This document shows, piece by piece, positions 3,261 through 47,271 of a DNA stretch of 52,799 bases (position 1 is its first letter; the number at the start of each line of letters is the position of its first letter). The stretch spans positions 1-52,799 of IMG/VR virus record IMGVR_UViG_3300034357_000407. The stretch is one strand, 5' to 3'. Origin of the DNA: a virus. Lineage: Duplodnaviria; Caudoviricetes. Made by a program: the position numbers and the translations under genes. Under the pieces are notes generated by a model. That model did no database searches, was not told where the DNA came from, and saw only the letters and a list, made by a program, of their open reading frames with translations.

Positions 3261-5063
3261 ATGAATAAATTTATAGATTGGAACACACTTGATTTTAGAA
3301 AAACGAGTGGTAAAGAAAAGATGAGATGTCCTTCTTGTGATAGTACAAGGTCAGATAAGAAAGATAAGAGTTTATTAGTTGATCATAATTCTGGTTATGG
3401 AAAATGTTTTTATTGTGAGTCATTAACATTTAAAGAGGTTAATAAAGTTATTGCAGATACTTCATACACATTACCTAATCAAGACTGGTTTAATTATACT
3501 GAATTATCAGACAAAATAGTTAAGTATTTAGAAAGTAGAGGTATCTCTCAAACAACCGCAATTAATTTAGGTATAACAGAAGAAGATTACTACCAGCCAT
3601 CTGTTGAGTCAAAAAGAAAGAATATTGTATTTAATTATTTTGAAGGAGATATTATTGTAAATAAGAAATACAGAACATCAGATAAGAAGTTTACTCAATC
3701 GACAAATGGAAAGTCTATATTTTATAATATAAACTCAATAATAAATGAAGAAGAATGTTACATAGTTGAAGGAGAGTTTGATGTATTAGCTGTTCATCAA
3801 GTCGGAATAAAGAATGTAATTAGTGTTCCTAATGGGGCTAATGATAATGATAAGTACTGGTTAAATTCAGAAAAGTACTTAAAAAACATTAAGAAGTTTT
3901 ATATAGCTACAGACAATGATGAAAAAGGTGATGACTTAGCTGATAAGATTGCTCAAAGATTAGGTAGATGGAGATGTGAGAGAATAAACTTTAAAGGGAA
4001 AGATGCTAATGAAGATTTAATAAATTCTTGTTTACTTTCATCTCTTAGCAATAGAACAACTTACCCAGTTGCAGGAACTCATTTAGTTAATGACCTAATT
4101 GATGATATAAATAATCTTTATGACAATGGATTTCCAGATACAATATTTCCAAAACATCATTCATTTGGTAAATTAAAAGATGTATTTTCTGTAATGAGAG
4201 GTCACTTAGTTGTAGGAACAGGAATTCCATCACACGGTAAATCTAACTTTACTGAATGGTATGTATTGAATTTGATTTCAGATTATAAAATGAAGGCAAG
4301 TTTTTATAGTCCTGAACACCATCCATTTAGTTTACACCACGCAACATTTATGCAAAAGGTATATGGAAAGAATTTTTTTAAAGATTATCCAGGAGTACCA
4401 AGAATTTCTAAAAGTGAAATAAATAGATACAAAGAATGGGCAAATAATAAAATATACTTAACAGCTCCAGATAATAGTACTTCTCCTACTTGGGGTTGGT
4501 TATTAGATAGATTTAAAGAGCAAATGATTTGTTATGGTATAGATATATTTGTGATAGATGCATTCAATAAGTTAGAGTTCGACAAGAGTGGTAATAAGTT
4601 GGATCAGATAAATGAAGTTCTAACAAAGTTAACTACTTTTGCTCAGATGAATAATGTAATTATATTTTTAATTGCACATCCAACAAAGATGAAGAAGAGT
4701 GAATCAGGTATTTATGAAAGTCCTACATTGTATGATGTTTCTGGTAGTAGTGATTTTAGAAACCAAACTCACGATGGATATTGTATTTATAGAAATTTTG
4801 ATGAAGATGGAGGATATACTACATTCACAAATTTAAAAACAAAGATGACTTTTCAAGGAGAGATTGGAGCTTACTCTGAATTTCAATATGATTTAGCTTC
4901 AGGAAGATATTATGATAGAAGTACTGAATGTCCTACTCATTGTTTAATTGACGATAATTCTTATGAAAGAATTGTATATGATGAGTGTGATGCTCCATTA
5001 CCAACTCCAACACCAGACCAAGCATTTGGACCAATAGATATTAATAATGAAATACCATTTTAA
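3261..5063 (+). CDS. Primase-helicase (T7 gp4/Twinkle type)
   Basis: Zn finger CPSC...CFYC; TOPRIM VEGEFD and ATDND; Walker A GIPSHGKS; Walker B FVIDAFN; IAHPTK; SGSSDF. Confidence 0.92.
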   Translation: MNKFIDWNTLDFRKTSGKEKMRCPSCDSTRSDKKDKSLLVDHNSGYGKCFYCESLTFKEVNKVIADTSYTLPNQDWFNYTELSDKIVKYLESRGISQTTAINLGITEEDYYQPSVESKRKNIVFNYFEGDIIVNKKYRTSDKKFTQSTNGKSIFYNINSIINEEECYIVEGEFDVLAVHQVGIKNVISVPNGANDNDKYWLNSEKYLKNIKKFYIATDNDEKGDDLADKIAQRLGRWRCERINFKGKDANEDLINSCLLSSLSNRTTYPVAGTHLVNDLIDDINNLYDNGFPDTIFPKHHSFGKLKDVFSVMRGHLVVGTGIPSHGKSNFTEWYVLNLISDYKMKASFYSPEHHPFSLHHATFMQKVYGKNFFKDYPGVPRISKSEINRYKEWANNKIYLTAPDNSTSPTWGWLLDRFKEQMICYGIDIFVIDAFNKLEFDKSGNKLDQINEVLTKLTTFAQMNNVIIFLIAHPTKMKKSESGIYESPTLYDVSGSSDFRNQTHDGYCIYRNFDEDGGYTTFTNLKTKMTFQGEIGAYSEFQYDLASGRYYDRSTECPTHCLIDDNSYERIVYDECDAPLPTPTPDQAFGPIDINNEIPF

Positions 5064-12215: not shown

Positions 12216-12250
12216 AAAAAGGAGGGGAATTTAACCCCTCCAATTTTTTT
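12216..12250. terminator. Bidirectional intrinsic terminator between the convergent modules
   Basis: A5-GGAGGGG-AATTTAA-CCCCTCC-AA-T tract. Confidence 0.85.
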
Positions 12251-15200
12251 ACTTATTATTTTGTTTCTTTCTTATTATTTCAAAGTACTCATCGCTGGTA
12301 TCTTCATCGAAATCATCTCCCATCATTTCAATATATTTAATGTTGTCTCCTTCCATTAAATCACCTACGTTATCGTAAATATACTTAGCTCTATCTCTAC
12401 CTTTACTTACCTTATCTAATTTCTTTATAGCTGGAAGAATAAACTTTTCATCTATTTTATTGTTAGCTTTCTTTATAGCTTCCTTTAATATGCTTAAAGA
12501 TGTTTCTTCTGAGATACCTTCTTCTTTAGTAAATTCATCTAACTTGTCAGTTAACTCTTCTACTGTCATTAAATTCTCTCCGCTATAATACTTATTCTCA
12601 AGTAACTTAAATGCGTCTTCAGATAGCTCTTCTTTTATCTTAGACTCCCTTACTTTATAGTATCCTTTAGTCTTATCCATACCACCTAACTTCTTAAGGA
12701 ATTCAACTTGCTCTACAATACTCTTACGCATTAAATTAAGTCTTATATCTTCAATGTATTCTGCTTTGTGTTCAAAGCTCATCTTAGACAACTCATTCAT
12801 TTGCTTCTCATTTAAAAATGATGTATTTAAAGTCTTATCAGGTGTTAATCTAGGATAAACAGCCTTATCTAAGGTTTCTCTAAATGTATTCAATTCTTTT
12901 TCGTACTGCTTAAATTCATCTTGAGTTACTTTACCTGTTACTAAAGACCAATAATCTTTGTAATCATAACTTTCACTTCCAGCAGCTACAACATAGTCTA
13001 TATTCTTTTTAAGTTTAGCTCCAGCAAATCCAGTTCCAGTCTCTAAAGCAAATAAGAATTGGTCTGTATTTGTGTATATCTCTTTCTTATCAATTACATT
13101 ATCAATACCTCTCATTGTTATAGATATGTTTGGTGAAGCTCCTTTTAGTGCTTGCATAACTATATCTTGAGATTTAAGGTCTGAAGGATTTACATCCATC
13201 TCCATAACGTCAGGACTATATTTAATTAGAGCAGCATTCTTAATTGAAGATGTTAATGTTCCAGCAAACCCCATACTCTCAAGTATAGAATCTATGATTT
13301 TATTACCAAATTGCAATATAGATGTCTTCTTATCCGCCTTACTTTCCTCTTCTTCATCATCACTACCTCTAAGAGCCTCTTTTATCATTACAGGCAGTAT
13401 TAGTCCAAAAGACGACATAGCTATAATTCTCTTCGTCTTAGAAGCATAATCTCCATCTTTTCTTAACATTGAATTTATATCAGAACTCATCATCTCCATA
13501 ATTTGTCTTGGAGATTGCAAATATCCACCCAACCCTAAAGCTAAAGCCCACTTTTGATAAAATGCAGTACCAGTGTAAAATGGAGCGTTTGATTGTAATG
13601 TCTTATTAACTTCCTCTGCAAAGAATTCATCTATATTTTCAGTAGTCGTAGTTTGCGTATCTACTTGGTATTTACCTTTATATAGTGGGGTTAAGGCTAT
13701 AACTGATATTTGGTCGAATACTGTTGTAAATATAAGTAAGTCAGATATTAATGCTCCAGAAACCCTATAACCTAAATTATCATTTATACTTTGAATAGCA
13801 GCAACCTCAGCATTATCTTTCCTCTTATTTGTTCTCTCAATGTAGTTCTTCGAATTAACTATTGCATTATAAGCCTCTTTTAGTTCATTAAATTCTTTAT
13901 TTCTAGTTTCTTTTTTAGCTAAATTCTTTAATGTATCTTTTAAGTATTTAAGGTTTCCTTCCTTAGCATAAGCAATTGGAATACCAGTTAACTGAGATAT
14001 AGCTGAAAATGCATTTAAAGCTAACTGAGCCGCTCTAAGTGTTGATCTACTTGCTACCCAAAATCTTGATGCAGACCCTACTAAATCTTTAGAACCCATA
14101 GATGTATCGTAAGCGTCATCTCTAACTATATTTAATATCTTTGTCTTAAACTTATCATTCCAAGCCTTTCCAAAAGCACTAATCATAGCCACATTGTTTC
14201 CTTCGTTAGCGTATAAATTCCTAACATCAGATACAATATCAGACCCTTGAACTAATGTAATAGCTTCTTTTGCTATATTATCAAACGAACGTGTTACAGA
14301 CAAATCATTAAGGTTTAAGTTACCTCCAGATGTTCTAGTGAATAATGAAGGGAATAATAAACTATAATCAGCATTAGGATTCTCAGAATCTTCAAAGAAT
14401 TCTAATACATTTCCTTCGTTTGTTCCAGATAATGATTCTGCTGACAATGGGTAGTATGGTATTTTTTCAGGAAGACCATTAGGGTAAACCATATCTAAAA
14501 TCTCGTATAAATCTCTAGTGGATTTATCATCTTTAATTTTTAATGCATCCTCTTTACTAACATACTTTGCCTCACCTAAAGTATCATATCCTAATTTGTC
14601 TAATGTAGGATTAACATAATCTCTTATGTTTTCAAATAACTTAGTAGACTTATCAGCAACATCCCTAATTCCAGGATTCTCATTTACATAAGATATAATA
14701 GACTTAGCATCCTCAATTGAATATGAATTTAAGAATTTATTCAATCCTTCAGGTTGTCTAAGCATATTAAATAATGCGGCAACACCTTCATTCTTCATTT
14801 TATCGAAAGGAATATATCTACTTACAAATTGGTCTTTAAATTTCTTTATAGAAGGGTCTTTCTTAATCATTAAATCTAATTCGTCAATAATACCAAGATA
14901 GTCTCCTTCAACTTTCTTTCCATTAATATCTATGCTAAATTGAATTTCATTTCTACCAACAAAAGACCAAAGAGGACTACTCTTATCACCGCCCTTAAAT
15001 ATAGCAACAGCGGTCTTAATTACATCGTATGTATTAGACTTTAAGATTCTATTATTGTTTAAGAAATTCTCTTTACCAATAACATCCTTAATAAAGTTAT
15101 CACGAACATCTCTAAATTCACTTACTTTTCTACCAAGCTTTTCAGAGTAAACCTTTAATCTATTTATCCAATTTTTGTCAAGGAATTCTTTAGCGCCTTC

Positions 15201-18200
15201 AACCGAAAATAAAGGCTCAAAGAATTTATTAGCACTAAATGTTGCGGTGCTATATCTTCTTCTAATATCATTAAAAGCTGTTTTAATACCTTTTCTATTA
15301 GCTTCTGCACTACTAGCTACATTTGATGTAGATATTGGATTAAAAGACACGCTACTTAATCCTTTTGTATCTGCAATAAAGTTAGATTTACCTGATTTGG
15401 TATTCAAGTATATCTTACCATTAAAGATAATACCACCTGAAAATTTATCAAATATCTTATCAATCATACCGTCAGACATTGATACTGTTCTCTTAGGCTC
15501 AATACTCTTATTCTTATTTAAAGAAATTATAGCTAATCTATTTGCATTCTCTCTTGATTTAGAATCTCTTGCTTTATTTATAGCTTTTCTTGCCTTAATA
15601 CCATCTTTTAATAGTTTATTTACCTCTAAGTAAAATACAGTCTTATCAGCTATTGTGGGATTAGTTATTTTGGCAAAATTCTTCTTAGCCTCTTCAATCT
15701 TCTTCTTAAATTCGTCAGTTACTTTAGTCTTAGTTACTTTTCCAGAAGTTTTATCCTTATAAAAAGTATCTTTAGATGCTTCCTTGATTTTCTTGTCAAG
15801 TATAGCCTCATCTTTTAACTCTCTTCTAAGATATAAGTCATCTATAATATCATTAATCTTTTCTGCTTGCCCCTCAAAGTTCATATCAGTTGTATTTTGA
15901 ACTATTGACGTTATTTTTTGATAAGCAGACTTAATAATATCAGAGGCATCAAGACCAACTAAATTAGACTTTACAAATTGATTTAAGTCTTTCTTTAACT
16001 TATAAATTTCTTTAGCTCTATTTTTCGTTATAGATATAGCTTCTTTTGCTACATTAAATAACTCTTGTAGTTGACTCTTAACTTCTTTTAGTGGTTTTAC
16101 TTTTTCTTCACCTTGCTCGGTAGGCTCTTCAGGTTTTGCTTCGGGTTCTCCTTGCTCCACTTCTTCGCTAACTGCGGTTTCTGGCTGTACAGGAATTTCA
16201 CTTGTTGTTTGCTCTTGAATGGCATCTTTGTCTTCTTTTTTAGTTGATAATTGTTTTAACGCATATTCTTTTAAATCAAAATCAGAAACAGATATATAAC
16301 CCATATCTCTAACGAGCTTTATACCATCATTTATAGCTTCCGCAAGAGTTTTACCTGCTTTATAAGAAACTTTGATTCCTTGTAAGAATTTTTTAGCAGC
16401 ATAAGCTGGTAGAGCTATTGAAGCATCAAAAGCACCTTTACCTTTTAAATCTAAAGCACTTATAGCTTTATCTAATAGTTTCTCAATTCTATCTCTTTCA
16501 TCTTTCTTAAAGCTTTCTATTAAGTTTTGAGCCTCTTGTAAATCTTTCTTATCTGCCTTTGTTTTTTTAGCTTTAAATACACCAATAGCTTTATTTCTTG
16601 TAGCCTCATCTCTAATACCAACAAGTTTGCCTTCAGGATTTACTTGTGATACAGCGAATGTTCCATCTTGTTTTTTGGTTACTTGAAATACTCTTTGACC
16701 CACCTTAACTAAGTCTTTATTCTTAGATTTCTTAACTAATTCATCTAATATTTCTTCTTCTATTTTAGCTAATAATTCTTCTGACTTCTTTTCTTCTTCT
16801 TTAAGTTCGTTAAGTGTTTTGGATTGAAACTCTTCTCTTCTCTTTCTTCTTTCTTCAGAATTTCTTTTCTTTTCTTCTGCTTTTATTTCTTTATCTGTTT
16901 TTCCAGCAACTTCTTTACCAGCAACTTGTAAATTAAGTTTTGTCTCTTTTTTATCAGATTGCAATGAAACATCTTTTAAAATTCTTTCTGCTTTTTCTCC
17001 AGACAATCTTCTTACAAGACCAGTTTCTTTTTCTTTTAACTTAACAACAGCTTTTCCTTTTTTATCTCTCGCTCTACTTACAAACTCATATTCTTTACCA
17101 TCTACTTTTACTACTGGTATTGATTTGCCTTGCTTAGCTTCCGTTCTTACTCCTTCTTGAGGGAATTTAGAAATACCAAAAGATGCTATAGGTCTGTTAG
17201 AATCTTCGTTAACCTTTCCTAGCTCTATTATTTCATTATTTGTTTCAAATACAATAGTGTTTTGATTGGTATCGTCTATCTTAATCATACCTTCTTTTGA
17301 TCCGATATATCCTTTTTGACCGATATTATCAGATAAATTTCCCTCTATTCTTTGTTCAGTAACTTCTTGTCTTAAAGCCTCTATCTCGTCTTCTGGAATA
17401 GTTACTACCTCATCTTCTTGTATTTCTAAATCTTCATCTTTAGTTGTTATTACTTCTTCTTGTGTTTGCACCCCTGCATCGACTTGCTGTGTTGTGCTAA
17501 CGGCTTGTTCTTCGGTTGTGGTTGTAGGCTTTTCTTCATTGGTGATTTGCCCATCAGTTTGCTTTCTTTTTGCATCTTCTTCTATTTTTTGGTTATATAA
17601 TTCTTTTGCTTTCTTGTCTATTAATTCTGCATTTATATTTATTGAAGCTTCTTCTTCTCCTTTATCAATCAATGCTTGTTTTAATATATTTTTTGCTTCA
17701 TCTTTTAATTTAGTCTGAACTTCTTCAGGTAATAAATCAAATGATGTTTTACTTCCATCTATTAACGCATCTCTGTTAGAAATCAACGAAGTGTATAATT
17801 CTTTTTGAGCATCTAATAATACCTTCTTTTCTTCTTTAGACAATTCTTTGTTCTCATTTATCTTATTAGCCTCTTGAAGTGTATTATCTATTTCTGTATT
17901 TAAAGATTCAATAGCGCTTACTCCTCCAGCATCTTTCTTGACCTTATCTATTATAGATAAATTGGTCTTATCTATATTTGATTGTATCTTGGAAATTCTA
18001 TCAAAATATATAGCTTTAGTTTCCTCACTAACATTTTCACCAAGTTTTCCTTTCCAATAATATAACTCTTTTTCAAGTTCAGAAATCTTATTCTTGTCAG
18101 AAGTAGATGCAATTCTATTTATAACACCCCTCCCCATAAGTGGGAATATTTTAGATATTAATGTAAATGTTGTAGTATCTTTTATTACATCATCAATAGA

Positions 18201-20399
18201 TTGACCTATATTCACGCCATCTTCATTAAGTACAAATACTCTTGATAAGTCTTGGAATATTTCAGCTAAAGACTCTTCTGTGTTCTCTTTTAATAAATCA
18301 GTACCAAGTTCTTTTGCCTCATCTAATCCTTTTTTGGTCCAGCTTTTCCAAAATATATTAGCAGTCTCTGGTTTTGAAAGTAGCGAGTTAAATGATTTTG
18401 ATAATCTTAAAGCTGTTGGTAAATTACCTAATATATCAGCTCCTCCAGTGATACCACCGTGAATTAACTTTTCGGCAAACGTGTGTACTTTACCTATCTC
18501 TCCAGGCTCAACTAAACCTCTTTTAAATCTCTCTTCAAATTCTTCAGATTCTCCAACACCTCTACCGAAACCTGATGCAAAATAAACAGCAGATTGTCTT
18601 AATAAAGGCATAGCTACTTTTCCATATCCTGCAAGCATAGGTAAAGCCATTTGACCTGTTTGAGTAGCTGTTACATCTGATACATAGTTTAGTAAACTAC
18701 TTGCGTTAGTCACTTCCTTTACATCTTCTCTTACAAGTTCTTTTTGTTTGCCTAACTCTTTAGAAAAGTCGTAGTAATTATAATCTTTAAATACTTTATT
18801 GAATAGGTATGAGTCAGCTCCTTGTAAAGGAAGACCTATTTTACCTTTAAGTTTGTCTGATAATTCAGCTAATGTTTGAATTGTCTTAATAGTTCCATTA
18901 ACTGTTTCTGCTGCCGATAAATAAACCTTATCTCCAAAAACACCGTCATAACTTCTTCTTGAGTTATCGAAGTCGTCATAAGCATCTTCTTTTCCAGTGA
19001 ATGATTTATCAAATTTCTCTATGTAGTTAAGTTGAGTATCTAATACAGAATTAAAGTCATCTGCCTTATATTTAATTTCTTCCTCTAACTTACTAACTAT
19101 TTGCTTTAAATTAGGATTTATAGGGCTAGATGCAGCTTTATCTTTATTAGTTTCATAGTAAGATATAAAATCTAAATCATCTTGATTCTTATCTTCTTTA
19201 TTTAAAAGACCATTGTATATATCTGTAGCGTAATCAAAGTTACCAAATATTATCTGGTGGTTTAATACATTCTTAGTTTGCTTTAAGTCGTTATAAAAAC
19301 CATCTACCTTCTCTTTGTTTAGCTTTAATAGGTTTGAGTATTTTACAGACTCTTTATTTAGTGTATTGTATCTTTCAAAATCATTTATTCTTAATGCATC
19401 TTGAATTTTAATAACTTTACCAGATTTAGGATCTACATATTCCTCATTTTTTATTTCGTTTAAGAATTCAGCGTCTTGATTCTCAATATAATTATCCTTA
19501 GCTTCCTTTAATTTTATCTCTTTTGCTTTTTCTTTTAACTGTTCAGGAGTTACGCTTTTACCTTCTTTTTCAAACTCTTGCTTTGCTTTATTAAAGTATT
19601 TATCTATAGATGTTTTATAAGCTACAACTCCAGTACTTCCTATTACTTCACTTGCTTTTTCTCCAATACCAAATGGTAGATTAGAAGCTAAAGCTAAGGC
19701 TGTATTCCAAGAGCCTCTTGCAAAATTTTCTACATTATTAATAAATCCTTTACCAGCTAAAGCATCTTCGAAATCTATACTTTCTTTTGTTAAGTAATTA
19801 TCAAGACCTTCTTGTTGAGCCGCTTTTCTTTGCTTTTGTTTTTCAGACACCACTACGCTTAATGGAGATACTGGAGCGACTTTAAAATCATTATCAACTT
19901 GAGCAGATACAGCTTCCGTAAATGTCTTTGGTTTTACATTGAACTGAGAAGTTATATCTACTACAGGTTTGTTATCAATTACAGCAATTTCTTTTTTCTT
20001 TGCTTCTTTAAATTCTTTTGACTTTTGCTCTGTAAAAGACTGAATAGGTGCGCCAAATAAGGCTTTATTTTTCCCAACAGAAGATGCCGAAGCCCCAGTT
20101 TGAAGAGGTTTTCCTCCAACCGAAAAAGACTTTGCTTTCGTTTGTTGTACAGGAGATACCGAAGGAGCTTCTTCTGAAGTACCAGTCGAAACTGAATTTT
20201 TTTTTTGAGAAGAATTTACGCCAACTAATACCTTGAATTCGGTTATATCTTTTTTATACCCATTATCTCTGAATAATGAATATGAATCTTCTAAAGCTTT
20301 AGGGTTTGTGTTTAATAAAACCTTAAAATCTTCTATTGATTTTTTATATCCATTTTGCTGAAATAGAGCAAAAGCGTCTTGTATTGCTTGTTCGTTCAT
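12249..20399 (-). CDS. Giant (2716 aa) internal virion / DNA-ejection protein
   Basis: Last gene of the podovirus-type structural operon, after two other candidate ejection genes; helical and K/E-rich, with hydrophobic segments near the C-terminus; no catalytic motif recognised. Confidence 0.65.
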   Translation of the reverse strand: MNEQAIQDAFALFQQNGYKKSIEDFKVLLNTNPKALEDSYSLFRDNGYKKDITEFKVLVGVNSSQKKNSVSTGTSEEAPSVSPVQQTKAKSFSVGGKPLQTGASASSVGKNKALFGAPIQSFTEQKSKEFKEAKKKEIAVIDNKPVVDITSQFNVKPKTFTEAVSAQVDNDFKVAPVSPLSVVVSEKQKQRKAAQQEGLDNYLTKESIDFEDALAGKGFINNVENFARGSWNTALALASNLPFGIGEKASEVIGSTGVVAYKTSIDKYFNKAKQEFEKEGKSVTPEQLKEKAKEIKLKEAKDNYIENQDAEFLNEIKNEEYVDPKSGKVIKIQDALRINDFERYNTLNKESVKYSNLLKLNKEKVDGFYNDLKQTKNVLNHQIIFGNFDYATDIYNGLLNKEDKNQDDLDFISYYETNKDKAASSPINPNLKQIVSKLEEEIKYKADDFNSVLDTQLNYIEKFDKSFTGKEDAYDDFDNSRRSYDGVFGDKVYLSAAETVNGTIKTIQTLAELSDKLKGKIGLPLQGADSYLFNKVFKDYNYYDFSKELGKQKELVREDVKEVTNASSLLNYVSDVTATQTGQMALPMLAGYGKVAMPLLRQSAVYFASGFGRGVGESEEFEERFKRGLVEPGEIGKVHTFAEKLIHGGITGGADILGNLPTALRLSKSFNSLLSKPETANIFWKSWTKKGLDEAKELGTDLLKENTEESLAEIFQDLSRVFVLNEDGVNIGQSIDDVIKDTTTFTLISKIFPLMGRGVINRIASTSDKNKISELEKELYYWKGKLGENVSEETKAIYFDRISKIQSNIDKTNLSIIDKVKKDAGGVSAIESLNTEIDNTLQEANKINENKELSKEEKKVLLDAQKELYTSLISNRDALIDGSKTSFDLLPEEVQTKLKDEAKNILKQALIDKGEEEASININAELIDKKAKELYNQKIEEDAKRKQTDGQITNEEKPTTTTEEQAVSTTQQVDAGVQTQEEVITTKDEDLEIQEDEVVTIPEDEIEALRQEVTEQRIEGNLSDNIGQKGYIGSKEGMIKIDDTNQNTIVFETNNEIIELGKVNEDSNRPIASFGISKFPQEGVRTEAKQGKSIPVVKVDGKEYEFVSRARDKKGKAVVKLKEKETGLVRRLSGEKAERILKDVSLQSDKKETKLNLQVAGKEVAGKTDKEIKAEEKKRNSEERRKRREEFQSKTLNELKEEEKKSEELLAKIEEEILDELVKKSKNKDLVKVGQRVFQVTKKQDGTFAVSQVNPEGKLVGIRDEATRNKAIGVFKAKKTKADKKDLQEAQNLIESFKKDERDRIEKLLDKAISALDLKGKGAFDASIALPAYAAKKFLQGIKVSYKAGKTLAEAINDGIKLVRDMGYISVSDFDLKEYALKQLSTKKEDKDAIQEQTTSEIPVQPETAVSEEVEQGEPEAKPEEPTEQGEEKVKPLKEVKSQLQELFNVAKEAISITKNRAKEIYKLKKDLNQFVKSNLVGLDASDIIKSAYQKITSIVQNTTDMNFEGQAEKINDIIDDLYLRRELKDEAILDKKIKEASKDTFYKDKTSGKVTKTKVTDEFKKKIEEAKKNFAKITNPTIADKTVFYLEVNKLLKDGIKARKAINKARDSKSRENANRLAIISLNKNKSIEPKRTVSMSDGMIDKIFDKFSGGIIFNGKIYLNTKSGKSNFIADTKGLSSVSFNPISTSNVASSAEANRKGIKTAFNDIRRRYSTATFSANKFFEPLFSVEGAKEFLDKNWINRLKVYSEKLGRKVSEFRDVRDNFIKDVIGKENFLNNNRILKSNTYDVIKTAVAIFKGGDKSSPLWSFVGRNEIQFSIDINGKKVEGDYLGIIDELDLMIKKDPSIKKFKDQFVSRYIPFDKMKNEGVAALFNMLRQPEGLNKFLNSYSIEDAKSIISYVNENPGIRDVADKSTKLFENIRDYVNPTLDKLGYDTLGEAKYVSKEDALKIKDDKSTRDLYEILDMVYPNGLPEKIPYYPLSAESLSGTNEGNVLEFFEDSENPNADYSLLFPSLFTRTSGGNLNLNDLSVTRSFDNIAKEAITLVQGSDIVSDVRNLYANEGNNVAMISAFGKAWNDKFKTKILNIVRDDAYDTSMGSKDLVGSASRFWVASRSTLRAAQLALNAFSAISQLTGIPIAYAKEGNLKYLKDTLKNLAKKETRNKEFNELKEAYNAIVNSKNYIERTNKRKDNAEVAAIQSINDNLGYRVSGALISDLLIFTTVFDQISVIALTPLYKGKYQVDTQTTTTENIDEFFAEEVNKTLQSNAPFYTGTAFYQKWALALGLGGYLQSPRQIMEMMSSDINSMLRKDGDYASKTKRIIAMSSFGLILPVMIKEALRGSDDEEEESKADKKTSILQFGNKIIDSILESMGFAGTLTSSIKNAALIKYSPDVMEMDVNPSDLKSQDIVMQALKGASPNISITMRGIDNVIDKKEIYTNTDQFLFALETGTGFAGAKLKKNIDYVVAAGSESYDYKDYWSLVTGKVTQDEFKQYEKELNTFRETLDKAVYPRLTPDKTLNTSFLNEKQMNELSKMSFEHKAEYIEDIRLNLMRKSIVEQVEFLKKLGGMDKTKGYYKVRESKIKEELSEDAFKLLENKYYSGENLMTVEELTDKLDEFTKEEGISEETSLSILKEAIKKANNKIDEKFILPAIKKLDKVSKGRDRAKYIYDNVGDLMEGDNIKYIEMMGDDFDEDTSDEYFEIIRKKQNNK
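16097..16225 (-). CDS. Nested +1-frame 42-aa basic protein, MPFKS-type
   Basis: ATG 16225 to TAA 16099-16097: MPFKSKQQVKFLYSQKPQLAKKWSKENPKQNLKSLPSKVKKK; A-rich upstream context. Confidence 0.65.
   Translation of the reverse strand: MPFKSKQQVKFLYSQKPQLAKKWSKENPKQNLKSLPSKVKKK
17450..17575 (-). CDS. Nested +1-frame 41-aa basic protein
   Basis: ATG 17575 to TAA 17452-17450: MQKESKLMGKSPMKKSLQPQPKNKPLAQHSKSMQGCKHKKK. Confidence 0.5.
   Translation of the reverse strand: MQKESKLMGKSPMKKSLQPQPKNKPLAQHSKSMQGCKHKKK
20065..20206 (-). other. Putative -1 frameshift / transcriptional slippage site with aromatic-rich alternative C-terminus
   Basis: A10 run (T10 at 20197-20206 on +); the -1 frame reads FSFDWYFRRSSFGISCTTNESKVFFGWRKTSSNWGFGIFCWEK to TAA 20067-20065. 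Confidence 0.55.
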
Positions 20400-20430
20400 T
20401 TATTGTTTTTTTTGAATATATTATAGTAAA

Positions 20431-21921
20431 CTAATAATTTGTAATTCTTGATTTTATTTCAGGTTTCTTCTTATTAAACCCAGCTAACTCTCTGTATTTA
20501 TCAAACAACTCATCAGTAGAACTTAATCCCAATGCATTTGCTACATTACCAGCTTGGTCATCTGCTTCTCTAGGTATAACTAATTCGTTTCTGTTAGTGG
20601 TCTTTATTCCAGACAAACTTCTTTTAGCTAATTCAAGTTCATTCTTCTTTTCGTTATAAGCGTCTGTATTACTTCTTAATGAAGCAAGTTGTTTTTCTAT
20701 GTCACTAACGTCTTCTTTTGTATATGTTTGACTTTCTGTACCAGTAGGCTCTGAATACTTAACTTTTATGAATTCCTTACCTTGTGCATTCTTAACCATA
20801 TATACGTTAAGTAATACAAGATTATCTACTACCTTAGTACCAACAGGTTTTCCTTTTTCATTATAAACATTCACCTTCAAAGAAGATACTCTAGGGTTTT
20901 TAGCCCCAGAGGCATCCCAAGCGTGTCCTTTACCTCCTCCAGGTAATCTAAAGTCAGTAGGTTTAATTATTTCCTTCTCGTCACCTTTACCTCCTCCATT
21001 ATTACTAGGTGGCGCTCCATAACCTCTCTCAACTTCTTTACCGTATGATTTAGCCATATTATCATAAAAGTACTTAGATGCCGCTTTCTTTTCGTCATCA
21101 GTCCAATTACTTGTCTTTCTCACTTTAGTTGTAGGCTTCATTTCAGATTGATACCATTTAGTCATTGCTGCGTTATCTCCAGCTAATGCGTCTGCTGCTA
21201 ATTGTATAGCTTCTCTTTGAGGTTGAGCCTCTGGAGAATTTATATCTCTAACCTTAACATTGCTATAATAACTACCACTTTCTTTTAATGGAGCTGTAAC
21301 TCTATCTACAACTTTTTTATATTCATCATTTAATTCAATATCCCCTACAAGATTTAGATTGTCTTTTACAAACCCACCTATATATTGAGGCTCTCTCTCT
21401 GTACCATCTTGGTCATACAATTGAACAAATCCTCTACCATCTTTAAATATGTACTTAGCCTTACCATCTCTAAGTTGTTGTAAATCAGACATTACTTCAT
21501 CGTAATTATCTTTATTCAACTTACCAGATTTAGCTAAGTCTTCAGCTGTCTTAAAGTAATCTGCCAAACCTTTGGCTTCATTTGTTATGGTATTCATTTC
21601 GTTTACAGTCTTATCGTATTCGTATAGATACCTAGAATCACCAGTTTGTTCGTATAGTTTTTTATTCTCTATTGCACTATTATAAAAATCCTTATACAAC
21701 TTAGACATAGATTCATCATAGCCAGTTAGACCAGAAGCTGAATAAGCATCAGGGTCTTTTCTATCTTTTAATTCATCTGCCTTTGCTTTTGCTACAGCCG
21801 CAGCCTTAGCCTTCTTTTCTGCATCAAGTTTATCAAATTCAGCCTTAACCATTCCTCCAAAGTCAGGACCTTGAATCGGTTGTACTTGAGCGTATGTTCC
21901 TACATTACCTACTACTGCCAT
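20431..21921 (-). CDS. Putative internal virion / ejection protein
   Basis: 496-aa helical protein between the pilot-like gene and the giant gene. Confidence 0.55.
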   Translation of the reverse strand: MAVVGNVGTYAQVQPIQGPDFGGMVKAEFDKLDAEKKAKAAAVAKAKADELKDRKDPDAYSASGLTGYDESMSKLYKDFYNSAIENKKLYEQTGDSRYLYEYDKTVNEMNTITNEAKGLADYFKTAEDLAKSGKLNKDNYDEVMSDLQQLRDGKAKYIFKDGRGFVQLYDQDGTEREPQYIGGFVKDNLNLVGDIELNDEYKKVVDRVTAPLKESGSYYSNVKVRDINSPEAQPQREAIQLAADALAGDNAAMTKWYQSEMKPTTKVRKTSNWTDDEKKAASKYFYDNMAKSYGKEVERGYGAPPSNNGGGKGDEKEIIKPTDFRLPGGGKGHAWDASGAKNPRVSSLKVNVYNEKGKPVGTKVVDNLVLLNVYMVKNAQGKEFIKVKYSEPTGTESQTYTKEDVSDIEKQLASLRSNTDAYNEKKNELELAKRSLSGIKTTNRNELVIPREADDQAGNVANALGLSSTDELFDKYRELAGFNKKKPEIKSRITNY

Positions 21922-21923
21922 AA

Positions 21924-22652
21924 TTATCTTTGAAATAAATTATTTTGAGGACTAACAAATTGACTTTGAACAAATCCTCCTAAATTACTTGGTACTTGTC
22001 CAAATTGATTAGATGTTGGAGATCCAAAACCTTTAGCTATATCCCCCATATTTTTGTAAAAATCAAAACTAGATTTATTTTCTGTAGTTGAAGTATTAGA
22101 GCTTTCAGAAGGCGGTGTCGGTGGTTTTTTCTTGTCCTTAATAGATTTATCCCAAGCACCAAGACCAGAAATAGTACTTTGAGCCATCCCTCCAATACCT
22201 TGCATCATCTGTTGATTGCCAGCATTGTATTGTGAAGACAACCCTGATATATCTTGCATCTCTCTTTGCTCTTGCATATTTCTAATGTTAGCCTCGTCTT
22301 GAGCGTACATTTGGTCTATCTGTTTTTGTTGCGCATCTAATTCAGCACCAATTTGTCTATTAAGCATTTGATTACCTGCTTCAACTCTTCCAAGACCTCC
22401 AAGTACACCTCTAACACCAGCACCTTGTAAAGCACCAACTTGTGTAGCAGCTAATCTTGCTTGCTCCTCTCTTTGTAGGTCTGCACCTAAAGTGGAAACT
22501 TGCATTCCTTCTGCAATATTATTAAACTCTTGTCTTTGATAATTATCTAGGGCATTTTTTGCGTCTCTCGCATCCTTTGCCCCTTTTATAGCTTGGTATC
22601 CAGAACCTAATAGTCCTACACCTGCCATTGCAATCGAAGTTGCTGCTGCCAT
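21924..22652 (-). CDS. Putative DNA pilot / small ejection protein
   Basis: G/A-rich hydrophobic N-terminus (MAAATSIAMAGVGLLGSG), Q-rich coiled coil, typical position. Confidence 0.6.
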   Translation of the reverse strand: MAAATSIAMAGVGLLGSGYQAIKGAKDARDAKNALDNYQRQEFNNIAEGMQVSTLGADLQREEQARLAATQVGALQGAGVRGVLGGLGRVEAGNQMLNRQIGAELDAQQKQIDQMYAQDEANIRNMQEQREMQDISGLSSQYNAGNQQMMQGIGGMAQSTISGLGAWDKSIKDKKKPPTPPSESSNTSTTENKSSFDFYKNMGDIAKGFGSPTSNQFGQVPSNLGGFVQSQFVSPQNNLFQR

Positions 22653-23075: not shown

Positions 23076-23083
23076 CAAAGATA
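23076..23083 (-). promoter_or_regulatory. -7 promoter element only 4 nt before the ATG (leaderless or near-leaderless)
   Basis: Minus strand reads TATCTTTG-CAAT-ATG. Confidence 0.6.
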
Positions 23084-29114: not shown

Positions 29115-29122
29115 CAAAGATA
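29115..29122 (-). promoter_or_regulatory. -7 promoter element
   Basis: Minus strand TATCTTTG. Confidence 0.6.
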
Positions 29123-32266: not shown

Positions 32267-33286
32267 TTATACTAATTTAAACTTTGTGCCAGTAGATATA
32301 CTCTCTGGCGCTCTACGCATTCCCATATCTATGTTCTTACTATTTCTAACCTCATCCTCGATAGCTTTAGCTTTAGCTGTTTCATATACGTTTGATAAGA
32401 TTGATTCATAATTCATAGCTACATACAATGCTTTGTGGTATCCTTCAGGGTCTTTGATAAAACCATTCTCATCTAAGAACTTTCCTAAAAAATTCATCAC
32501 ATTTGATTGTGTCTCTTTCGTAGATTGAATATTTGAAGGTTTGTGATTAATAACTTCTTCACCAACTTTAAACTCAAAACCTTTGAATTCATTGCTAAAT
32601 AAATTATCAGTCTCCTTCAAGAATATTTCATTCTGTTTCTGAGATAATTCTTCTTGCCCTTTAATTGAATCTACAAACTCCTTAGCACTTTTGTATTCAG
32701 CTGGAATTTCTGTATCACTAGACCCTAATGGTACAGCATATTTTTCCTTTTGTTTATTAAAGTATTCTAAGGCATCTGCGTGAGCCTTCTTAAATGCACG
32801 AGTCTTTTTTCTTATATCCTTATCGTCATCGATGTCTTCATCATAAGCGTATGCATCTAAAAACTCATCTTGAATATCCTCATTGTCGAATTCAGGATTC
32901 ATTTCTCGCATATACTTCTTAACGACATCTTGCTCGTCTAATTCAGAATAGTCTTTTTGGTATTCTAAAAAATCATTATACCCTCTACCTGTTTCCTCTT
33001 TAAACTCTAAGTATTTTTTAACATCTTCTGGTAATTCCTTGCTTTCGCTTTTAGGAGCTACCTTAGATAATAATTCTTCCTTAGTCTTAAGGTATTCTAA
33101 TACGTCATCGTCATTATTAAATGTAAGAACTTTTTTATCTTCTATAATATCATCAAGTGTGTCATCTGTTGTTGTAACCGAATCTGTAATTTGGTCGTTC
33201 ACTTCAGACAATCCTTCATTATCAATGATTACATCATTATTTTGAACATCAGAGTACTCAGACCCTTCTAATTTCATTTTAAACAT
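32267..33286 (-). CDS. Capsid scaffolding protein
   Basis: Acidic and helical, between portal and capsid; ELPEDVKKYLEFKEETG. Confidence 0.7.
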   Translation of the reverse strand: MFKMKLEGSEYSDVQNNDVIIDNEGLSEVNDQITDSVTTTDDTLDDIIEDKKVLTFNNDDDVLEYLKTKEELLSKVAPKSESKELPEDVKKYLEFKEETGRGYNDFLEYQKDYSELDEQDVVKKYMREMNPEFDNEDIQDEFLDAYAYDEDIDDDKDIRKKTRAFKKAHADALEYFNKQKEKYAVPLGSSDTEIPAEYKSAKEFVDSIKGQEELSQKQNEIFLKETDNLFSNEFKGFEFKVGEEVINHKPSNIQSTKETQSNVMNFLGKFLDENGFIKDPEGYHKALYVAMNYESILSNVYETAKAKAIEDEVRNSKNIDMGMRRAPESISTGTKFKLV

Positions 33287-35791: not shown

Positions 35792-38422
35792 TTATTTATT
35801 ATAAGTCTTAAAATTTATAACTATATCCTCGGCAACTTTTTGCACTGGAGCATACATTTTTCTATTAACCGCCATTATAGCTAAACCAGAGCTAATAGAG
35901 GCATCAAATTTTGTTCTATTATTAATATCAAACTTCATCCAATCCTTTAGCGTGTCATTAAACACTATATTCTGTGGTACTTCATCGTCATCTACATTAC
36001 TACCAACGTATTTCTCTATGTAAGATTCAATAGCTGTTGCGTGCATTTGCTTAACATCCTCGGAAGAGTTAGGCATACCTCCTAATTCCTTCTCTGTTGG
36101 TGAAAGCCTATTTTCAGTCTTATCAAAACGAGTTATACTAAAACCTCTATAACCTCTATTCTTAAAATGGTACAACAAACGTGGCTTATTATTCTCTGCC
36201 AATATAGGCATACCATAAAATACACAAGCCATTAATACATCTTCAAAGAATATCTCTGCTGTCTTTGGTCTTGCTACATACTCTAAAAAAAATGTATGAT
36301 TAGGTGCATTAGAAAAACTAAATCCTGTTAGTCCGTGTAAAGCTCCCTTTGAAGCTCTATTTGTGTCCTCATCATAAGACCCATCCTTTCTAACACCTTC
36401 TACTGTTCCTGATATATCGTATGTATCACAACCAAAAGCCCCTATATCTCCATTTAACGGATATTTTGAGTGTCCTCCTGGACCACTTTTTGTTTCAAAT
36501 TTATTCCTCATCTCCTCAGGTGGTATCCAAGATAGTTTAAATCTTCCTTTCTCATTAGGGTAAAAATCAACTATTGTATCCTTAATACCATCTCTCCATT
36601 GGAAATTACCAATAGTAATCTTACTATCAGCATCGTGGTCTTCATTTATCTTTATCTGGTCTATTATCTTTTCTATGTTAAAGGTAGATTGCAATAACTC
36701 GTCTCTAAAGGCTTCATCTATAGTCATAGGGAATGCTCTTAATTCCTCGTTATAAGAAATGTCGCTTTCCTTTCTCTTACTACTTCTCTTCGCCTCTAAG
36801 AATTGAACACTACCGATAGTCTTCTTATCTCCGTACACATTATAATAAAAACTACCCTTCTCTATAACTTCGTGGCAAACACCATACTTATCTGTAAATT
36901 CCTCCATATTCTTGTGAGCTGGAAGAAAGTACGAGTATAAACCTGATGGTGTTCTACCTGTAATCTTATTTCTCTTCTTAATACTTGATGATTTATACAG
37001 CTTAAAGAATTCCTCTCCACCCTTATTCATCGCATTAACAGTAGAACCTATAAATGCCTTTCCTACAATTTTACCACCTGTATCGAATGTTGGTGATACT
37101 TGACCCCAGTGCTTCTCAAAGTTAGCAGGCTTTTCCCATTTAGATGCCTCATCTCCAAGATACCTAAACATCTTTTGACCATCATAAGCCGAATCTTTTG
37201 TTGGTAAGAAATCCACCAATGTATTTAAGTAGTCATCTGTATTTGTATCTCTATTTTTTTTGGATAGTTTGCTTTTATCTTGTGGTCTTGCAAAGTCTAA
37301 TGCTTTCTTTGAATCTTCAATCCCTCTTACAATAGGCTTAAAGAAGAATGGTAAATTAAGGAATGCGTAACTAAACTTAGAGAATGCCTTTGCAGCATCA
37401 TCATTAGTCTTTGATGTCATACCTATCCTTGCATTTGAAGTTGAGGTTGCATCATTAAGTAATTGACATATAATTTGATATGTATAACCTGTACGTCTTG
37501 ACTTTACAAATAACTCACCTAAACATCTCGGGTCTACAATACAAGCCTCTGTGAAATAAAACATATCTCTCTGAGCTGTCCTGAAGTCCATATACCCACC
37601 TGAATCCTCCATCTTTACCCACTGAAGTGCAAAGTAGTGACTACCAGTTAGGTATTGAGGTTTTCCATTATTCATAAACCAAATACCTTCTCTTCTCCTT
37701 CTGAATTCCTCTATAATGTATTCCGTATATGCTTCTGCATTTTCTTGAGATAAACCATTTGGAACATCTAATCTTCTCCAATATTGGTCTTCTTTCTTTT
37801 TATCCCAGAATAATATATCTTTCCTATAAGGTACTTTTGGTAGGGTAATATTTAAACCACTAAGGTTTATAACTTCACCTTTTGTACCATTAGGGTCTAA
37901 TATGATTGAGTCATTTTCTTCATCATACCATTCCTTATAATAGTTCTTTCTTGGTAAAAATTCTCCACAAGAAAACTTCTCGGGATACCCTCTCTTAAAT
38001 TCATTCTCCTTAAGATTAATTTTATCAGCATCTATCTGAAGTCTTAATTCAATAAGTGATGAATCAATTTCTACAATTGCTTGGTGAATTGAAGGTTTAA
38101 CTGAAATAGCTAAGTGGTGTTTTGACGGATCTAAATCATCGTAGTCAATCTTTGAACGTAAAGCGTCTCTAAGAACTCCTAAGGCAATATCTCCAGCTTT
38201 AACAAGTCTTACTACATATTTCTTAAATTTATCCTCAGAAGGTGCGTTTGTGCTATTCTGCCATCTAAGGAGTAATTCCTTACCATACTTAAATGAATCA
38301 ACTTTAGCCTTTACAATAGTCTTTACTTTATCGGGTTCAATTAAAGACATATCAGTGCTATACTCTAATCCTTCGATTACAGTTTCAACAGCTATCTCTA
38401 TATCTTTACTTAATCCTATCAT
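35792..38422 (-). CDS. terL: Terminase large subunit with N-terminal extension
   Basis: Walker A VKSRRTGYT, Walker B YLGDEASK, GST coupling motif, nuclease FGCDTYD and AENNKP. Confidence 0.9.
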   Translation of the reverse strand: MIGLSKDIEIAVETVIEGLEYSTDMSLIEPDKVKTIVKAKVDSFKYGKELLLRWQNSTNAPSEDKFKKYVVRLVKAGDIALGVLRDALRSKIDYDDLDPSKHHLAISVKPSIHQAIVEIDSSLIELRLQIDADKINLKENEFKRGYPEKFSCGEFLPRKNYYKEWYDEENDSIILDPNGTKGEVINLSGLNITLPKVPYRKDILFWDKKKEDQYWRRLDVPNGLSQENAEAYTEYIIEEFRRRREGIWFMNNGKPQYLTGSHYFALQWVKMEDSGGYMDFRTAQRDMFYFTEACIVDPRCLGELFVKSRRTGYTYQIICQLLNDATSTSNARIGMTSKTNDDAAKAFSKFSYAFLNLPFFFKPIVRGIEDSKKALDFARPQDKSKLSKKNRDTNTDDYLNTLVDFLPTKDSAYDGQKMFRYLGDEASKWEKPANFEKHWGQVSPTFDTGGKIVGKAFIGSTVNAMNKGGEEFFKLYKSSSIKKRNKITGRTPSGLYSYFLPAHKNMEEFTDKYGVCHEVIEKGSFYYNVYGDKKTIGSVQFLEAKRSSKRKESDISYNEELRAFPMTIDEAFRDELLQSTFNIEKIIDQIKINEDHDADSKITIGNFQWRDGIKDTIVDFYPNEKGRFKLSWIPPEEMRNKFETKSGPGGHSKYPLNGDIGAFGCDTYDISGTVEGVRKDGSYDEDTNRASKGALHGLTGFSFSNAPNHTFFLEYVARPKTAEIFFEDVLMACVFYGMPILAENNKPRLLYHFKNRGYRGFSITRFDKTENRLSPTEKELGGMPNSSEDVKQMHATAIESYIEKYVGSNVDDDEVPQNIVFNDTLKDWMKFDINNRTKFDASISSGLAIMAVNRKMYAPVQKVAEDIVINFKTYNK

Positions 38423-38961
38423 AAATGTAGTATGATTCTATTTTGGTTAATCATATACAGCTTCTCGTCAAATATCTTAAACTCGTATTCTGAATCTTTC
38501 TTAACACCAATCAATGAACCTTCTTTTAGGTCAGACATATCTTTGTTCTTGTATTTTAAGATACATATCTGTTCATTCTCTTTATATCCTTCATACTTAT
38601 CATTGATAGTTGTGGGTTCTATAAAACAAAATGGAGGTAATGCAATTTTATTATCTCCCTTTATAACCATATAAGCTAATTCCTTCTCAACATAAAACAA
38701 GTCATCTTTAATATGATATTTACTCTCTAAAGGAAATCCTTGATTATTATATTGAATTCTAAAGGTATTATGGTGTACAACTATTGTATCTCCAACTTCT
38801 ACATCTCCTTCGTAACCAATAGGTGTTGATATTACCTCTGCTAATCTTTGTGTGAAGTTGTGGTCCTCAACAGATATATTTAAAATTAATCCATTAGATG
38901 AATTATTAGAATACCTCTCTTTATTAAGTGGTCTAACTATAAAGTAATGTGGGCTTCTCAT
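38419..38961 (-). CDS. Tandem GroES-like co-chaperonin
   Basis: Domain 1: FIVRP...SNGLIL...AEVISTP...VEVGDTIVVHH; domain 2: ALPPFCFIEP...LKEGSLIGVKKDSEYEFKIFDEKLYMINQNRIIL. Confidence 0.65.
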   Translation of the reverse strand: MRSPHYFIVRPLNKERYSNNSSNGLILNISVEDHNFTQRLAEVISTPIGYEGDVEVGDTIVVHHNTFRIQYNNQGFPLESKYHIKDDLFYVEKELAYMVIKGDNKIALPPFCFIEPTTINDKYEGYKENEQICILKYKNKDMSDLKEGSLIGVKKDSEYEFKIFDEKLYMINQNRIILHL

Positions 38962-43561: not shown

Positions 43562-43810
43562 TTACCATAGTTTTGTGCAAGCTAAATGTCTTGGCGTACC
43601 AGGTTTAGCTGTATCGCACTTGTGTCTTGCGTGAAAATTCTTTTTTCTTTTACTATCCTTATGTTTTGTAAAATCAGAGTAACCTTTAGCACCTGCGTGA
43701 ACTAAAGTTTCCTTTCCGTTTACACAATACTTTTTCATTATTTTCTTTCCTGGTCGAGTAGATTTCCTAACCTCTCCACACTTCATACTGCTTTTTACTG
43801 ATTCTGCCAT
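43562..43810 (-). CDS. Small basic protein, DUF5754-like (start re-called at 43810)
   Basis: KSTRPGKK...LVHAGAKGYSDFTKHKDSKRKKNFHARHKC...W; a promoter lies inside the longer ORF call. Confidence 0.7.
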   Translation of the reverse strand: MAESVKSSMKCGEVRKSTRPGKKIMKKYCVNGKETLVHAGAKGYSDFTKHKDSKRKKNFHARHKCDTAKPGTPRHLACTKLW

Positions 43811-46434: not shown

Positions 46435-47271
46435 CTATTTCTTTTTGCCTCTTTGTTTAGAGTCTTTTATTTTTTTTTCTAATGTTGGTAATTTAATTCC
46501 ATTTGATACAGAAAAGTTGCTAATACCAACAAGATATACGTTAACTAAAGGATATTCAATTCCATTAACTTTTATAAAACAATTGCTTATCTCTTTTTTT
46601 AATTTATCATATCTTTCCGATCCTTTTAAAAACCATTTTTTTGAATAGCCTGTTTTATTTAATTTATACAAAGACTTTGAATCAAGTCCTGTATTTTTAA
46701 AAAACACATCTTTATCGTTTAACGTATGTTCTTCATTGTTTAAATTTATAACTGTCAATCCTTTTCGAAAAGAATCTTTTTTAGTATTTCTTCTTTTTTT
46801 AAATGTTTCTTCGTTTATTAAATTTATCCAGCTTCCTTTTGTTTTTCCAAATAACTCACTTATTTCTCTGTAACTTATATTTGGATTAGAAAATAACTCG
46901 TTTATGTATTCTTCTTCTTTATGCAGTTCTGGTATTTTTTTACTATAAAAACCTCCTAAAGCAGTATTGTAATTACCTTCATTAATAACCCAATCGGTAT
47001 TTACGATAATTGACTCCTCTTCATAAGCTTCTTCAATCGTATCAAAAAAACAAAGTACTTCCATTTTGAAATTAGAATATCCGTATTTATTTACCGCTCT
47101 AACGAATTTATTAGAGTTTCCTCTTTTAATTTGAGAATCACAAGAAGCTTTACTTTTTATTCCATTCCCTATATATCCATCGTTTATATTATTTGTAGAG
47201 TGAACTCCAATATATGTCTTTCCGTTTAAAGTATTTTTAGTTTGATATGTGAAATTATATTTCTTGTTCAT
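46435..47271 (-). CDS. Free-standing GIY-YIG (Seg-like) homing endonuclease
   Basis: FTYQTKNTLNGKTYIGVHST...GYIGNG...KYGYSNF...YNTALGG; C-terminal HTH-like segments. Confidence 0.85.
   Translation of the reverse strand: MNKKYNFTYQTKNTLNGKTYIGVHSTNNINDGYIGNGIKSKASCDSQIKRGNSNKFVRAVNKYGYSNFKMEVLCFFDTIEEAYEEESIIVNTDWVINEGNYNTALGGFYSKKIPELHKEEEYINELFSNPNISYREISELFGKTKGSWINLINEETFKKRRNTKKDSFRKGLTVINLNNEEHTLNDKDVFFKNTGLDSKSLYKLNKTGYSKKWFLKGSERYDKLKKEISNCFIKVNGIEYPLVNVYLVGISNFSVSNGIKLPTLEKKIKDSKQRGKKK

Follow-up and report, generated by a model that had tools for sequence, protein, structure and literature searches.

A giant gene of a Flavobacterium podovirus carries three conserved second reading frames and probably yields four proteins

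How many proteins are encoded by the giant gene that ends the structural gene row of a Flavobacterium phage? The stretch of DNA analyzed here, hereafter the window, is a virus record of 52,799 nucleotides (IMG/VR IMGVR_UViG_3300034357_000407; Caudoviricetes), estimated to be 86% complete, from a freshwater Flavobacterium podovirus close to Elemovirus; its 446-residue structural protein is 87–90% identical to the elemo phage counterparts, and this closeness is judged from protein identities only. On the minus strand, positions 12249..20399 form a single open reading frame (ORF) of 2716 codons that likely encodes a DNA-ejection (internal core) protein, the last of three genes resembling T7 gp14, gp15 and gp16. 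Three segments of this ORF can be read in a second frame: a tail in the −1 frame behind a run of ten A residues, and two basic +1 microproteins that we call ORF-A and ORF-B. The original prediction, made from the letters of this one genome, had placed these readings in GC-richer (guanine plus cytosine) segments, and all three were found where it put them; they are the GC-richest segments of the giant gene, with values of 0.43–0.46 where the whole gene has 0.31, and they rank in the 99th percentile or higher among 150-nucleotide windows. Comparison with relatives shows that all three second frames exist and are kept, and codon-position and silent-change tests indicate that purifying selection acts on each as a frame of its own. 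We think it likely, with considerable room for doubt, that the gene yields four proteins from one late mRNA.

Could all three frames instead be accidental by-products of low-complexity linkers? Taken by itself, this genome leaves both +1 ORFs within chance. When the main protein was resampled with synonymous codons, an open frame with ATG was obtained in 34% of trials for ORF-A and in 15% for ORF-B, and the giant gene holds 18 ATG-started +1 ORFs of at least 15 residues; the −1 tail stayed open in 0.6% of trials. Since the +1 ORFs are within chance here, the test had to come from homologues. Our main set comprises 80 IMG/VR loci, picked by ORF-A likeness from 394 confirmed hits, together with elemoA and elemoD (82 loci). 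Four of the 82 are cut and were dropped from the analysis of the A-run and tail, leaving 78 homologous genes with an intact 5′ end; the main loci were not chosen for the A-run. A second, unbiased set was picked via the neighboring 242-residue gene, and 11 of its 13 loci reach the giant gene, 10 of them being long enough for ORF-A and ORF-B. Two features of this sampling weigh against our interpretation: counts of ORF-A in the main set are biased because its 80 IMG/VR loci were selected by ORF-A likeness, and the unbiased set offers just 4 pairs and contains some redundancy. Chance for all three frames nevertheless runs against the codon-position shifts measured with controls, the statistics of the A-run, and the free-standing family to which ORF-A belongs; the homologue tests refute it for ORF-A and the tail, and we regard it as scarcely credible.

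ORF-A, which is almost certainly a gene judging from its conservation, occupies positions 16225–16097 (minus strand) and would specify a basic protein of 42 residues belonging to what we call the MPFKS family. It begins AAG-ATG, where the main frame reads GAT-GCC (Asp-Ala), and ends AAG-TAA. Its net charge is +12 and that of the overlying host segment is −12. ORF-A is nested in the +1 frame of a long host frame at 82 of 82 loci, and it is present at 9 of the 10 unbiased loci that are long enough. Across ORF-A, substitutions at main codon positions 1, 2 and 3 number 297/102/55 (36 pairs), and the unbiased set gives 34/11/5 (4 pairs); in the flanks, alignable in only 6 of the 36 pairs per side, the counts are 43/26/88. 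The start also has the features expected of its host. A residues at −3, −6, −12 and −13 are reported start determinants in F. johnsoniae (PMC6847099), and at least three of these four A's precede 74% of 62 ORF-A starts; the figure is 16% for other +1 ATGs and 44% for those that are A-rich. The prediction that both micro-ORFs begin AAG-ATG and end AAG-TAA holds in this genome and fails as a general rule: among 88 nested ORF-A copies, 47 have AAG-ATG, 28 have AAG-TAA, and 17 have both. It counts against our interpretation that neither ORF-A nor the A-run is universal, because ORF-A is missing from L094 and from the fetched stretches of Panino, phi38:1 and phi18:3, and the A-run is missing from L042 and L045.

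Where did ORF-A come from? A profile search recovered 896 family clusters, most of them called proteins in which the motif begins at residue 1. The conserved core is hydrophobic (M1 P2 F3, P17, A20, and L35 P36), and the modeled protein has two helices, with a predicted local distance difference test score (pLDDT) of 86; Foldseek returned no match to this fold, and the best VIA score was Z 2.2. ORF-A matches PHROG 1375 weakly over residues 3–27 (E 1e-3), other family members matching down to 6e-7. The cluster Atlas lists DUF3008 (PF11450) in 15% of members, at 0.86, for one cluster; a Pfam scan of 28 members gave no DUF3008 match, and we set this kinship aside as unconfirmed. Neither PHROG 1375 nor DUF3008 is a family with a known function, and DUF3008 is a lead only.

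In a survey of the family, two pattern scans, of which the second sampled approximately 1900 stretches, yielded 153 distinct copies, and 46 copies at contig edges were dropped. Among the remaining 107, a stop interrupts the would-be host frame in 57, while 33 lie in a scaffold-like gene, 5 in helix-turn-helix (HTH)-like ORFs, 2 in other giant genes, and 10 elsewhere. The scaffold-nested copies are +1 to the acidic N-terminal part of a gene between portal and capsid (e.g., L211:3022-4218 and L204:3019-4227, both minus strand, and 31 more), and they are selected in their own frame (36/48/101 by own codon positions). This scaffold-like gene is 38% identical to the gene at window positions 32267-33286, which carries no nested copy. 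The acidic linker over a basic peptide, as predicted from the window, is thus real and recurs in other host genes. The HTH-like ORFs, 125–139 residues long, carry their copies +1-nested near the start (L101, L119, L122, L140 and L171), the L171 site lying just upstream of the terminase genes. MPFKS modules also form the N-terminus of longer proteins of up to 851 residues (P0031–P0148), and several of these end the module in V-x-E, which we take to resemble a prohead-protease site.

Each of the five near-complete genomes with a giant-nested copy has one copy. In a quick family tree of 134 rows and 42 columns, the giant-nested copies form one group (support 86) and the scaffold-nested copies are mixed with free ones; because 67 of 129 branches are open and there are only 42 columns, the number of captures is not settled. 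At 14 of 24 sampled free loci, with one to three neighbors scanned at each, the copy adjoins terminase, portal, adaptor or scaffold genes. Two observations count against a tie to the head module: no head-module neighbor was detected for the other 10 of the 24, and in Streptomyces phage FlowerPower an annotated free-standing family gene lies beside the holin gene. Because the family is widespread and has free-standing members, ORF-A is not a de novo overprint on the linker, as had first been supposed. It is probably an old gene that was later engulfed, the overlying acidic linker being the newer frame. A short truncated duplicate of the ORF-A start lies upstream of the full copy in the giant genes of elemoA and elemoD, near codons 1089 and 1152 (L001 and L002), and suggests that domain insertions happen at these linkers. 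Other giant genes (L016, L031, L046, L050 and L073) contain a further +1 ORF family, of 57–118 residues and with 7 loci in its cluster, which is absent from the window.

ORF-B (17575–17450, minus strand) is a basic +1 microprotein of 41 residues that is found in Elemovirus-like phages only. It has the same AAG-ATG start, where the main frame reads GAT-GCA (Asp-Ala), and the same AAG-TAA end; its net charge is +11 and that of the overlying segment is −5. Eleven distinct copies, 36–44 residues long, each open with an ATG and close with a Lys-rich stretch before the stop, and the ATG is kept while the overlying host codon varies between GAT, AAT and TAT. Identity in the +1 frame exceeds host identity in 52 of 55 pairs, which are not independent. 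Substitutions by main codon position number 21/9/5, and 4 independent pairs show 18 changes that are silent in the +1 frame alone, compared with 4 that are silent in the host frame alone (P 0.002). In two relatives ORF-B lies 49 codons before ORF-A, resembling a nested two-gene operon.

Is ORF-B, then, a gene, or does the locus make three products, with ORF-B a +1 shadow of a T/Q/E-rich linker retained by descent in one clade? ORF-B is narrow and of low complexity, the probability that it is open by chance is 0.08–0.61 per copy, and the copies are related and were found via +1 likeness or K-richness, all as expected of a shadow. A shadow would not explain the excess of changes silent in the +1 frame, or the survival of the ATG and the terminal Lys-stop through host-codon changes and indels. 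Nor is it what the neighbor-picked loci suggest, as ORF-B is present at 9 of the 10 long enough and the tenth has a 28-residue K-rich +1 ORF at a like place. We consider the shadow improbable, and ORF-B quite probably a gene on these comparisons. Three points count against it. Its evidence is limited to the 4 independent pairs; no homologue was found among called proteins of 22–72 residues, in a search weakened by a short, low-complexity query; and its start context (38% of 8 copies) is no better than the A-rich background (44%). With this last limit, Flavobacterium-type start contexts are seen at both +1 ORFs, in support of the original prediction.

The third second frame begins at the A10 run (20206-20197, minus strand; codons 65–68), which likely serves as a slippage site, through an A added to the RNA or a −1 ribosomal shift. 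Beyond the run, the −1 frame is open for 44 codons to a stop at 20065 (20065..20199, minus strand) and encodes a cationic tail rich in Phe, Trp, Tyr and Gly that has no ATG of its own. Upstream lies the N-terminal leader of approximately 64 residues (20207..20399, minus strand), which shows two helical-type repeats in an alignment of 39 leaders, has no Pfam family above the cut-off, and would be common to the long product and the predicted short one. The predicted short isoform is 111 residues here (67 + 44).

The tail is very probably a real, selected coding frame, to judge from its pattern of change. Among homologues the −1 frame is open for 12–61 codons beyond the run and encodes cationic strands rich in Gly and aromatic residues, Gly making up 13.6% vs 5.7% expected. 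Of 69 distinct tails, 57 share a four-residue motif that is seen in 39 of 7357 background windows. Tail substitutions by main codon position 1/2/3 are 55/98/65 (23 independent pairs), with a peak at position 2, as expected from selection on the −1 frame; the controls are 54/33/96 before the tail (10 alignable pairs) and 39/28/81 after it (8 pairs), with P 2e-8 and 2e-7. The +1 frame, which would follow deletion of an A, is open for 78 codons here and for 33 codons in relatives vs 21 in the null model. We rejected its product as a by-product because beyond the tail stop this frame extends no farther than the null (15 vs 18 codons) and because, within the tail, main position 1 varies least.

What kind of structure would the tail adopt? 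The model of the window tail is a four-stranded β-meander (pLDDT 94). Other tails are two- or three-stranded, and because some look like a Trp-rich helix rather than strands there is no single tail fold, a point against our interpretation. A transmembrane helix for the membrane-active isoform suggested in the prediction is not borne out, as none of the 73 tails reaches a mean hydropathy of 1.6 over a 19-residue stretch and the model is a meander of short strands. The tail model had no match at E < 0.001 in viral or Protein Data Bank (PDB) structure libraries, and no tail homologue was found outside the host gene in a search made weak by a short, low-complexity query. A four-copy complex prediction scored 0.10 and was counted neither for nor against.

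How does the frame change? Runs of at least nine A's occur within the first 110 codons in 76 of 78 homologues, and the rest of those genes has five such runs in 595,731 nucleotides. The run is present at all 11 unbiased loci that reach the giant gene, and also in the cultured phages phi38:1 and Gundel_1. Elsewhere A7 is frequent (229 instances) and A10 or longer is absent in 580,662 nucleotides. The whole window avoids runs of at least nine A's, which occur at 2 places vs 9.5 matches expected. The other one, an A9 at 46470-46478, falls toward the 3′ end of a gene for a GIY-YIG homing endonuclease; the GIY-YIG-like gene of L094 likewise has an A9.

We propose that the short isoform likely arises by polymerase slippage at A10. 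Polymerases slip efficiently on nine A's or T's, and T. thermophilus dnaX relies on this (PMC5009743). Alternatively, the same four products could be made with the short isoform arising by −1 ribosomal frameshifting on A_AAA_AAA. The 73 distinct tract contexts all contain this heptamer in frame, 61 of the 73 have a G after the run, and the genomic run length is A10 in 29 of 29 assemblies checked (two subgroups). Because every run contains A_AAA_AAA, the ribosomal shift retains some probability, and this counts against slippage. On the other side, the heptamer needs seven A's, yet runs of 9–11 are kept in all three codon phases. The heptamer expected of a −1 shift was found, and the stimulator, a 3′ stem-loop or 5′ Shine-Dalgarno (SD) word, was not: in a scan without pseudoknots, the fold after the run has a median z of −0.6, with 8 of 73 below −2 and no conserved structure, and SD-like words are near the run in 12 of 73 contexts only. 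We judge ribosomal shifting unlikely.

Further evidence on polymerase slippage comes from five GenBank records in which an A9 places the leader out of frame with the giant: phi18:3 (L362:20507-20515), phi13:2 (L363:3268-3276), phi19:3 (L364:6250-6258), phi46:3 (L365:5313-5321), and Panino (L360:18750-18758). In these, one added A leads to the giant, and the aromatic tail is reached with two added or one lost. All four Cellulophaga records divide the gene into two, and the record of the Maribacter phage Panino starts the giant downstream. If these runs are real, the giant depends on one added A, which fits slippage best; ribosomal frameshifting would require a −1 shift for the giant and a −2 or +1 shift for the tail. 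Against this, the records may be homopolymer under-calls, and four are of near-identical phages. Two called proteins from short contigs (P0165 and P0166; 82 and 98 residues) have leader and aromatic tail in one frame, as in the predicted short isoform; they may stem from slipped RNA or from sequencing error. Two metatranscriptome runs from fresh water, together with a doubtful RNA run and a DNA run, provided low-depth contigs over 15900-20500; these barely cover the A10 run, so that the absence of a listed indel there carries no weight.

How might these products work together? A late mRNA, perhaps from a −7-type element at 23076, would span the gene row, and most ribosomes would make the giant. 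The host polymerase would slip on A10 and add an A, so that in some of the transcripts the leader is fused to the cationic aromatic β-tail. Giant and short isoform are probably directed by the leader to one and the same site in the head, where the tail probably serves, during ejection, to bind membrane, lipopolysaccharide surfaces or nucleic acid. Ribosomes would start internally at the A-rich, SD-free starts of ORF-A and ORF-B. ORF-A would be an old head-module microprotein whose −1 shadow the acidic disordered segments tolerate, and it most likely ends inside the head on DNA. ORF-B would be a younger, lineage-restricted basic peptide of the same build. The charge of both, and the head-module setting of the family, suggest peptides that are packaged together with the DNA, although an assembly role in the cell keeps some probability. 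Charge and gene neighborhood are also what bears on the original suggestion of DNA-condensing core peptides. It weighs against this scheme that no match in sequence or fold assigned a function to any of the products.

Another possibility is that the products act in the infected cell rather than in the particle, ORF-A being an assembly or packaging factor or a host-binding peptide, the slip lowering the dose of the giant, and the tail marking a by-product for a partner or for decay. Free copies of the family near terminase and portal genes, and one in a lysis module, would suit such roles, as would the hydrophobic core of ORF-A, which suits protein binding, and the service of tails of unlike fold at the same site. 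However, a mere dose valve needs a stop only, not a selected tail of 12–61 residues, and the family also serves as the N-terminal module of longer proteins with the V-x-E ends described above. We find action in the cell rather doubtful. Returning to particle components, a broader and tentative proposal, which we would not yet call probable, is that acidic disordered linkers of phage morphogenesis proteins are landing sites for the portable basic MPFKS gene, that unrelated head and core genes have repeatedly taken this gene up in their +1 frame, one copy per genome, so that the acidic linker would itself be its shadow, and that the A9–A10 slip apportions product between the giant and a small membrane-binding β-tail isoform, some cultured phages making the giant only by slippage. 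One cistron could then give rise to four virion components.

What is known of such arrangements? T7 gp10A and gp10B are two virion-related products that share an N-terminus and are made at a set ratio. The −1 frameshift that makes the phage tail chaperones G and GT (PMC5009743) does likewise. These ribosomal shifts extend a short gene; here the shift would cut a 2716-residue protein to approximately 111 residues. T. thermophilus dnaX (tau/gamma) and Shigella spa13, mxiE and spa33 (PMC5009743) share with the giant gene a homopolymer of at least nine inside an ORF and, as proposed here, a long product in the genomic frame with a short one from extra-A transcripts. In dnaX both other frames stop at once; in the giant gene the −1 frame encodes the selected tail. 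Also unlike dnaX, the putative slip site lies close to the 5′ end in a gene for a virion protein, and it has been retained in Elemovirus, Pervagoviridae and Pachyviridae.

Nested phage genes include lambda Rz1 in Rz, and phiX174 B in A and E in D. Like ORF-A, these are complete small genes in another frame of a larger gene, with their own start and stop. Rz1, however, sits in its own partner, whereas ORF-A sits in at least three unrelated hosts (the giant, the scaffold-like gene and a small HTH-like gene); and, unlike Rz1, ORF-A is +1 in every nested case found and lies under an acidic segment. Among the basic peptides found inside virions, phiX174 J and the T4 internal peptides are small, strongly basic, and encoded among head genes. 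ORF-A and ORF-B, as candidate virion peptides, resemble them in size, charge and head setting, with no sequence or fold likeness in the PDB.

Each part of the proposed arrangement is thus of a known kind by analogy, the slippage like that of dnaX and the nesting like that of Rz/Rz1. In elemoA and elemoD all three hidden frames are present and unannotated, both records giving one coding sequence only. We found no published description of these frames in a search that left out supplements, the elemo phage paper and Cellulophaga phage proteomics, any of which could bear on novelty, and the portions searched of PMC7077304 and PMC8776804 do not contain the word “frameshift”. Within that search, what we found undescribed is the joint use of these devices in one virion gene, the selected tail behind a slip site in several groups of phages, and the nesting of one small gene in a number of unrelated host genes.

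The assignment of the giant as a likely ejection protein comes from its position in the gene row. On the minus strand, the row ending in the giant comprises portal, scaffold-like, capsid-like, crAss-muzzle-like, T7 gp14-like, and 496-residue genes. The gp14-like gene (21924..22652, minus strand) encodes a 242-residue virion protein that matches PHROG 13764 (E 8e-43) and, below the cut-off, Pfam T7_gp14 (E 4e-5). The 496-residue gene (20431..21921, minus strand) would be the positional gp15 equivalent and has no Pfam or PHROG family match. Thus the sizes 242/496/2716 fit a T7-type row, with a family match, to T7_gp14 and below the cut-off, for the first gene only. Pfam and PHROG scans of the giant itself gave no match. 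It is 82% identical to the elemoD “structural protein” across 37% of its length, and the phi18:3 gene at the corresponding position is annotated as structural from tandem mass spectrometry. The gene is a mosaic: it has 2716 codons here vs approximately 3700–3760 in elemoA and elemoD, whose C-terminal part differs.

A candidate source of a shared mRNA is the octamer TATCTTTG at 23076..23083 (minus strand), upstream of a four-gene row, which resembles a Bacteroidetes −7 promoter by consensus match only; the consensus is that given in PMC6847099. The same octamer occurs on the minus strand at 29115, 29965, 39215, 43829 and 49789, apparently in intergenic positions, and these are candidate late promoters of the −7 type. 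No TANNTTTG lies near ORF-A or ORF-B on the minus strand, and sigma-70 matches are below chance. A terminator-like hairpin that could act in both directions (12221..12241) follows the giant gene.

If these readings hold, three selected frames in a gene of 68 cultured Elemovirus records would represent a layer of phage genes missed by annotation, with a slip site common to at least three groups of flavobacterial podoviruses; the analysis also suggests that five GenBank records split a gene at this site. Elemo phages, phi38:1 and phi18:3 are in culture, which makes the predictions experimentally accessible. One small gene seen both free and nested in several hosts offers a natural test of which overlapping frame came first, and the abundant 40-residue family to which it belongs is tied to head genes. 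Finally, we note other features of the window. Three more small free-standing K-rich ORFs lie on the minus strand at 43810 (82 residues), 47538 (87 residues) and 49814 (62 residues), and the phage encodes GroEL (43884-45446) and GroES-like (38419-38961) genes.

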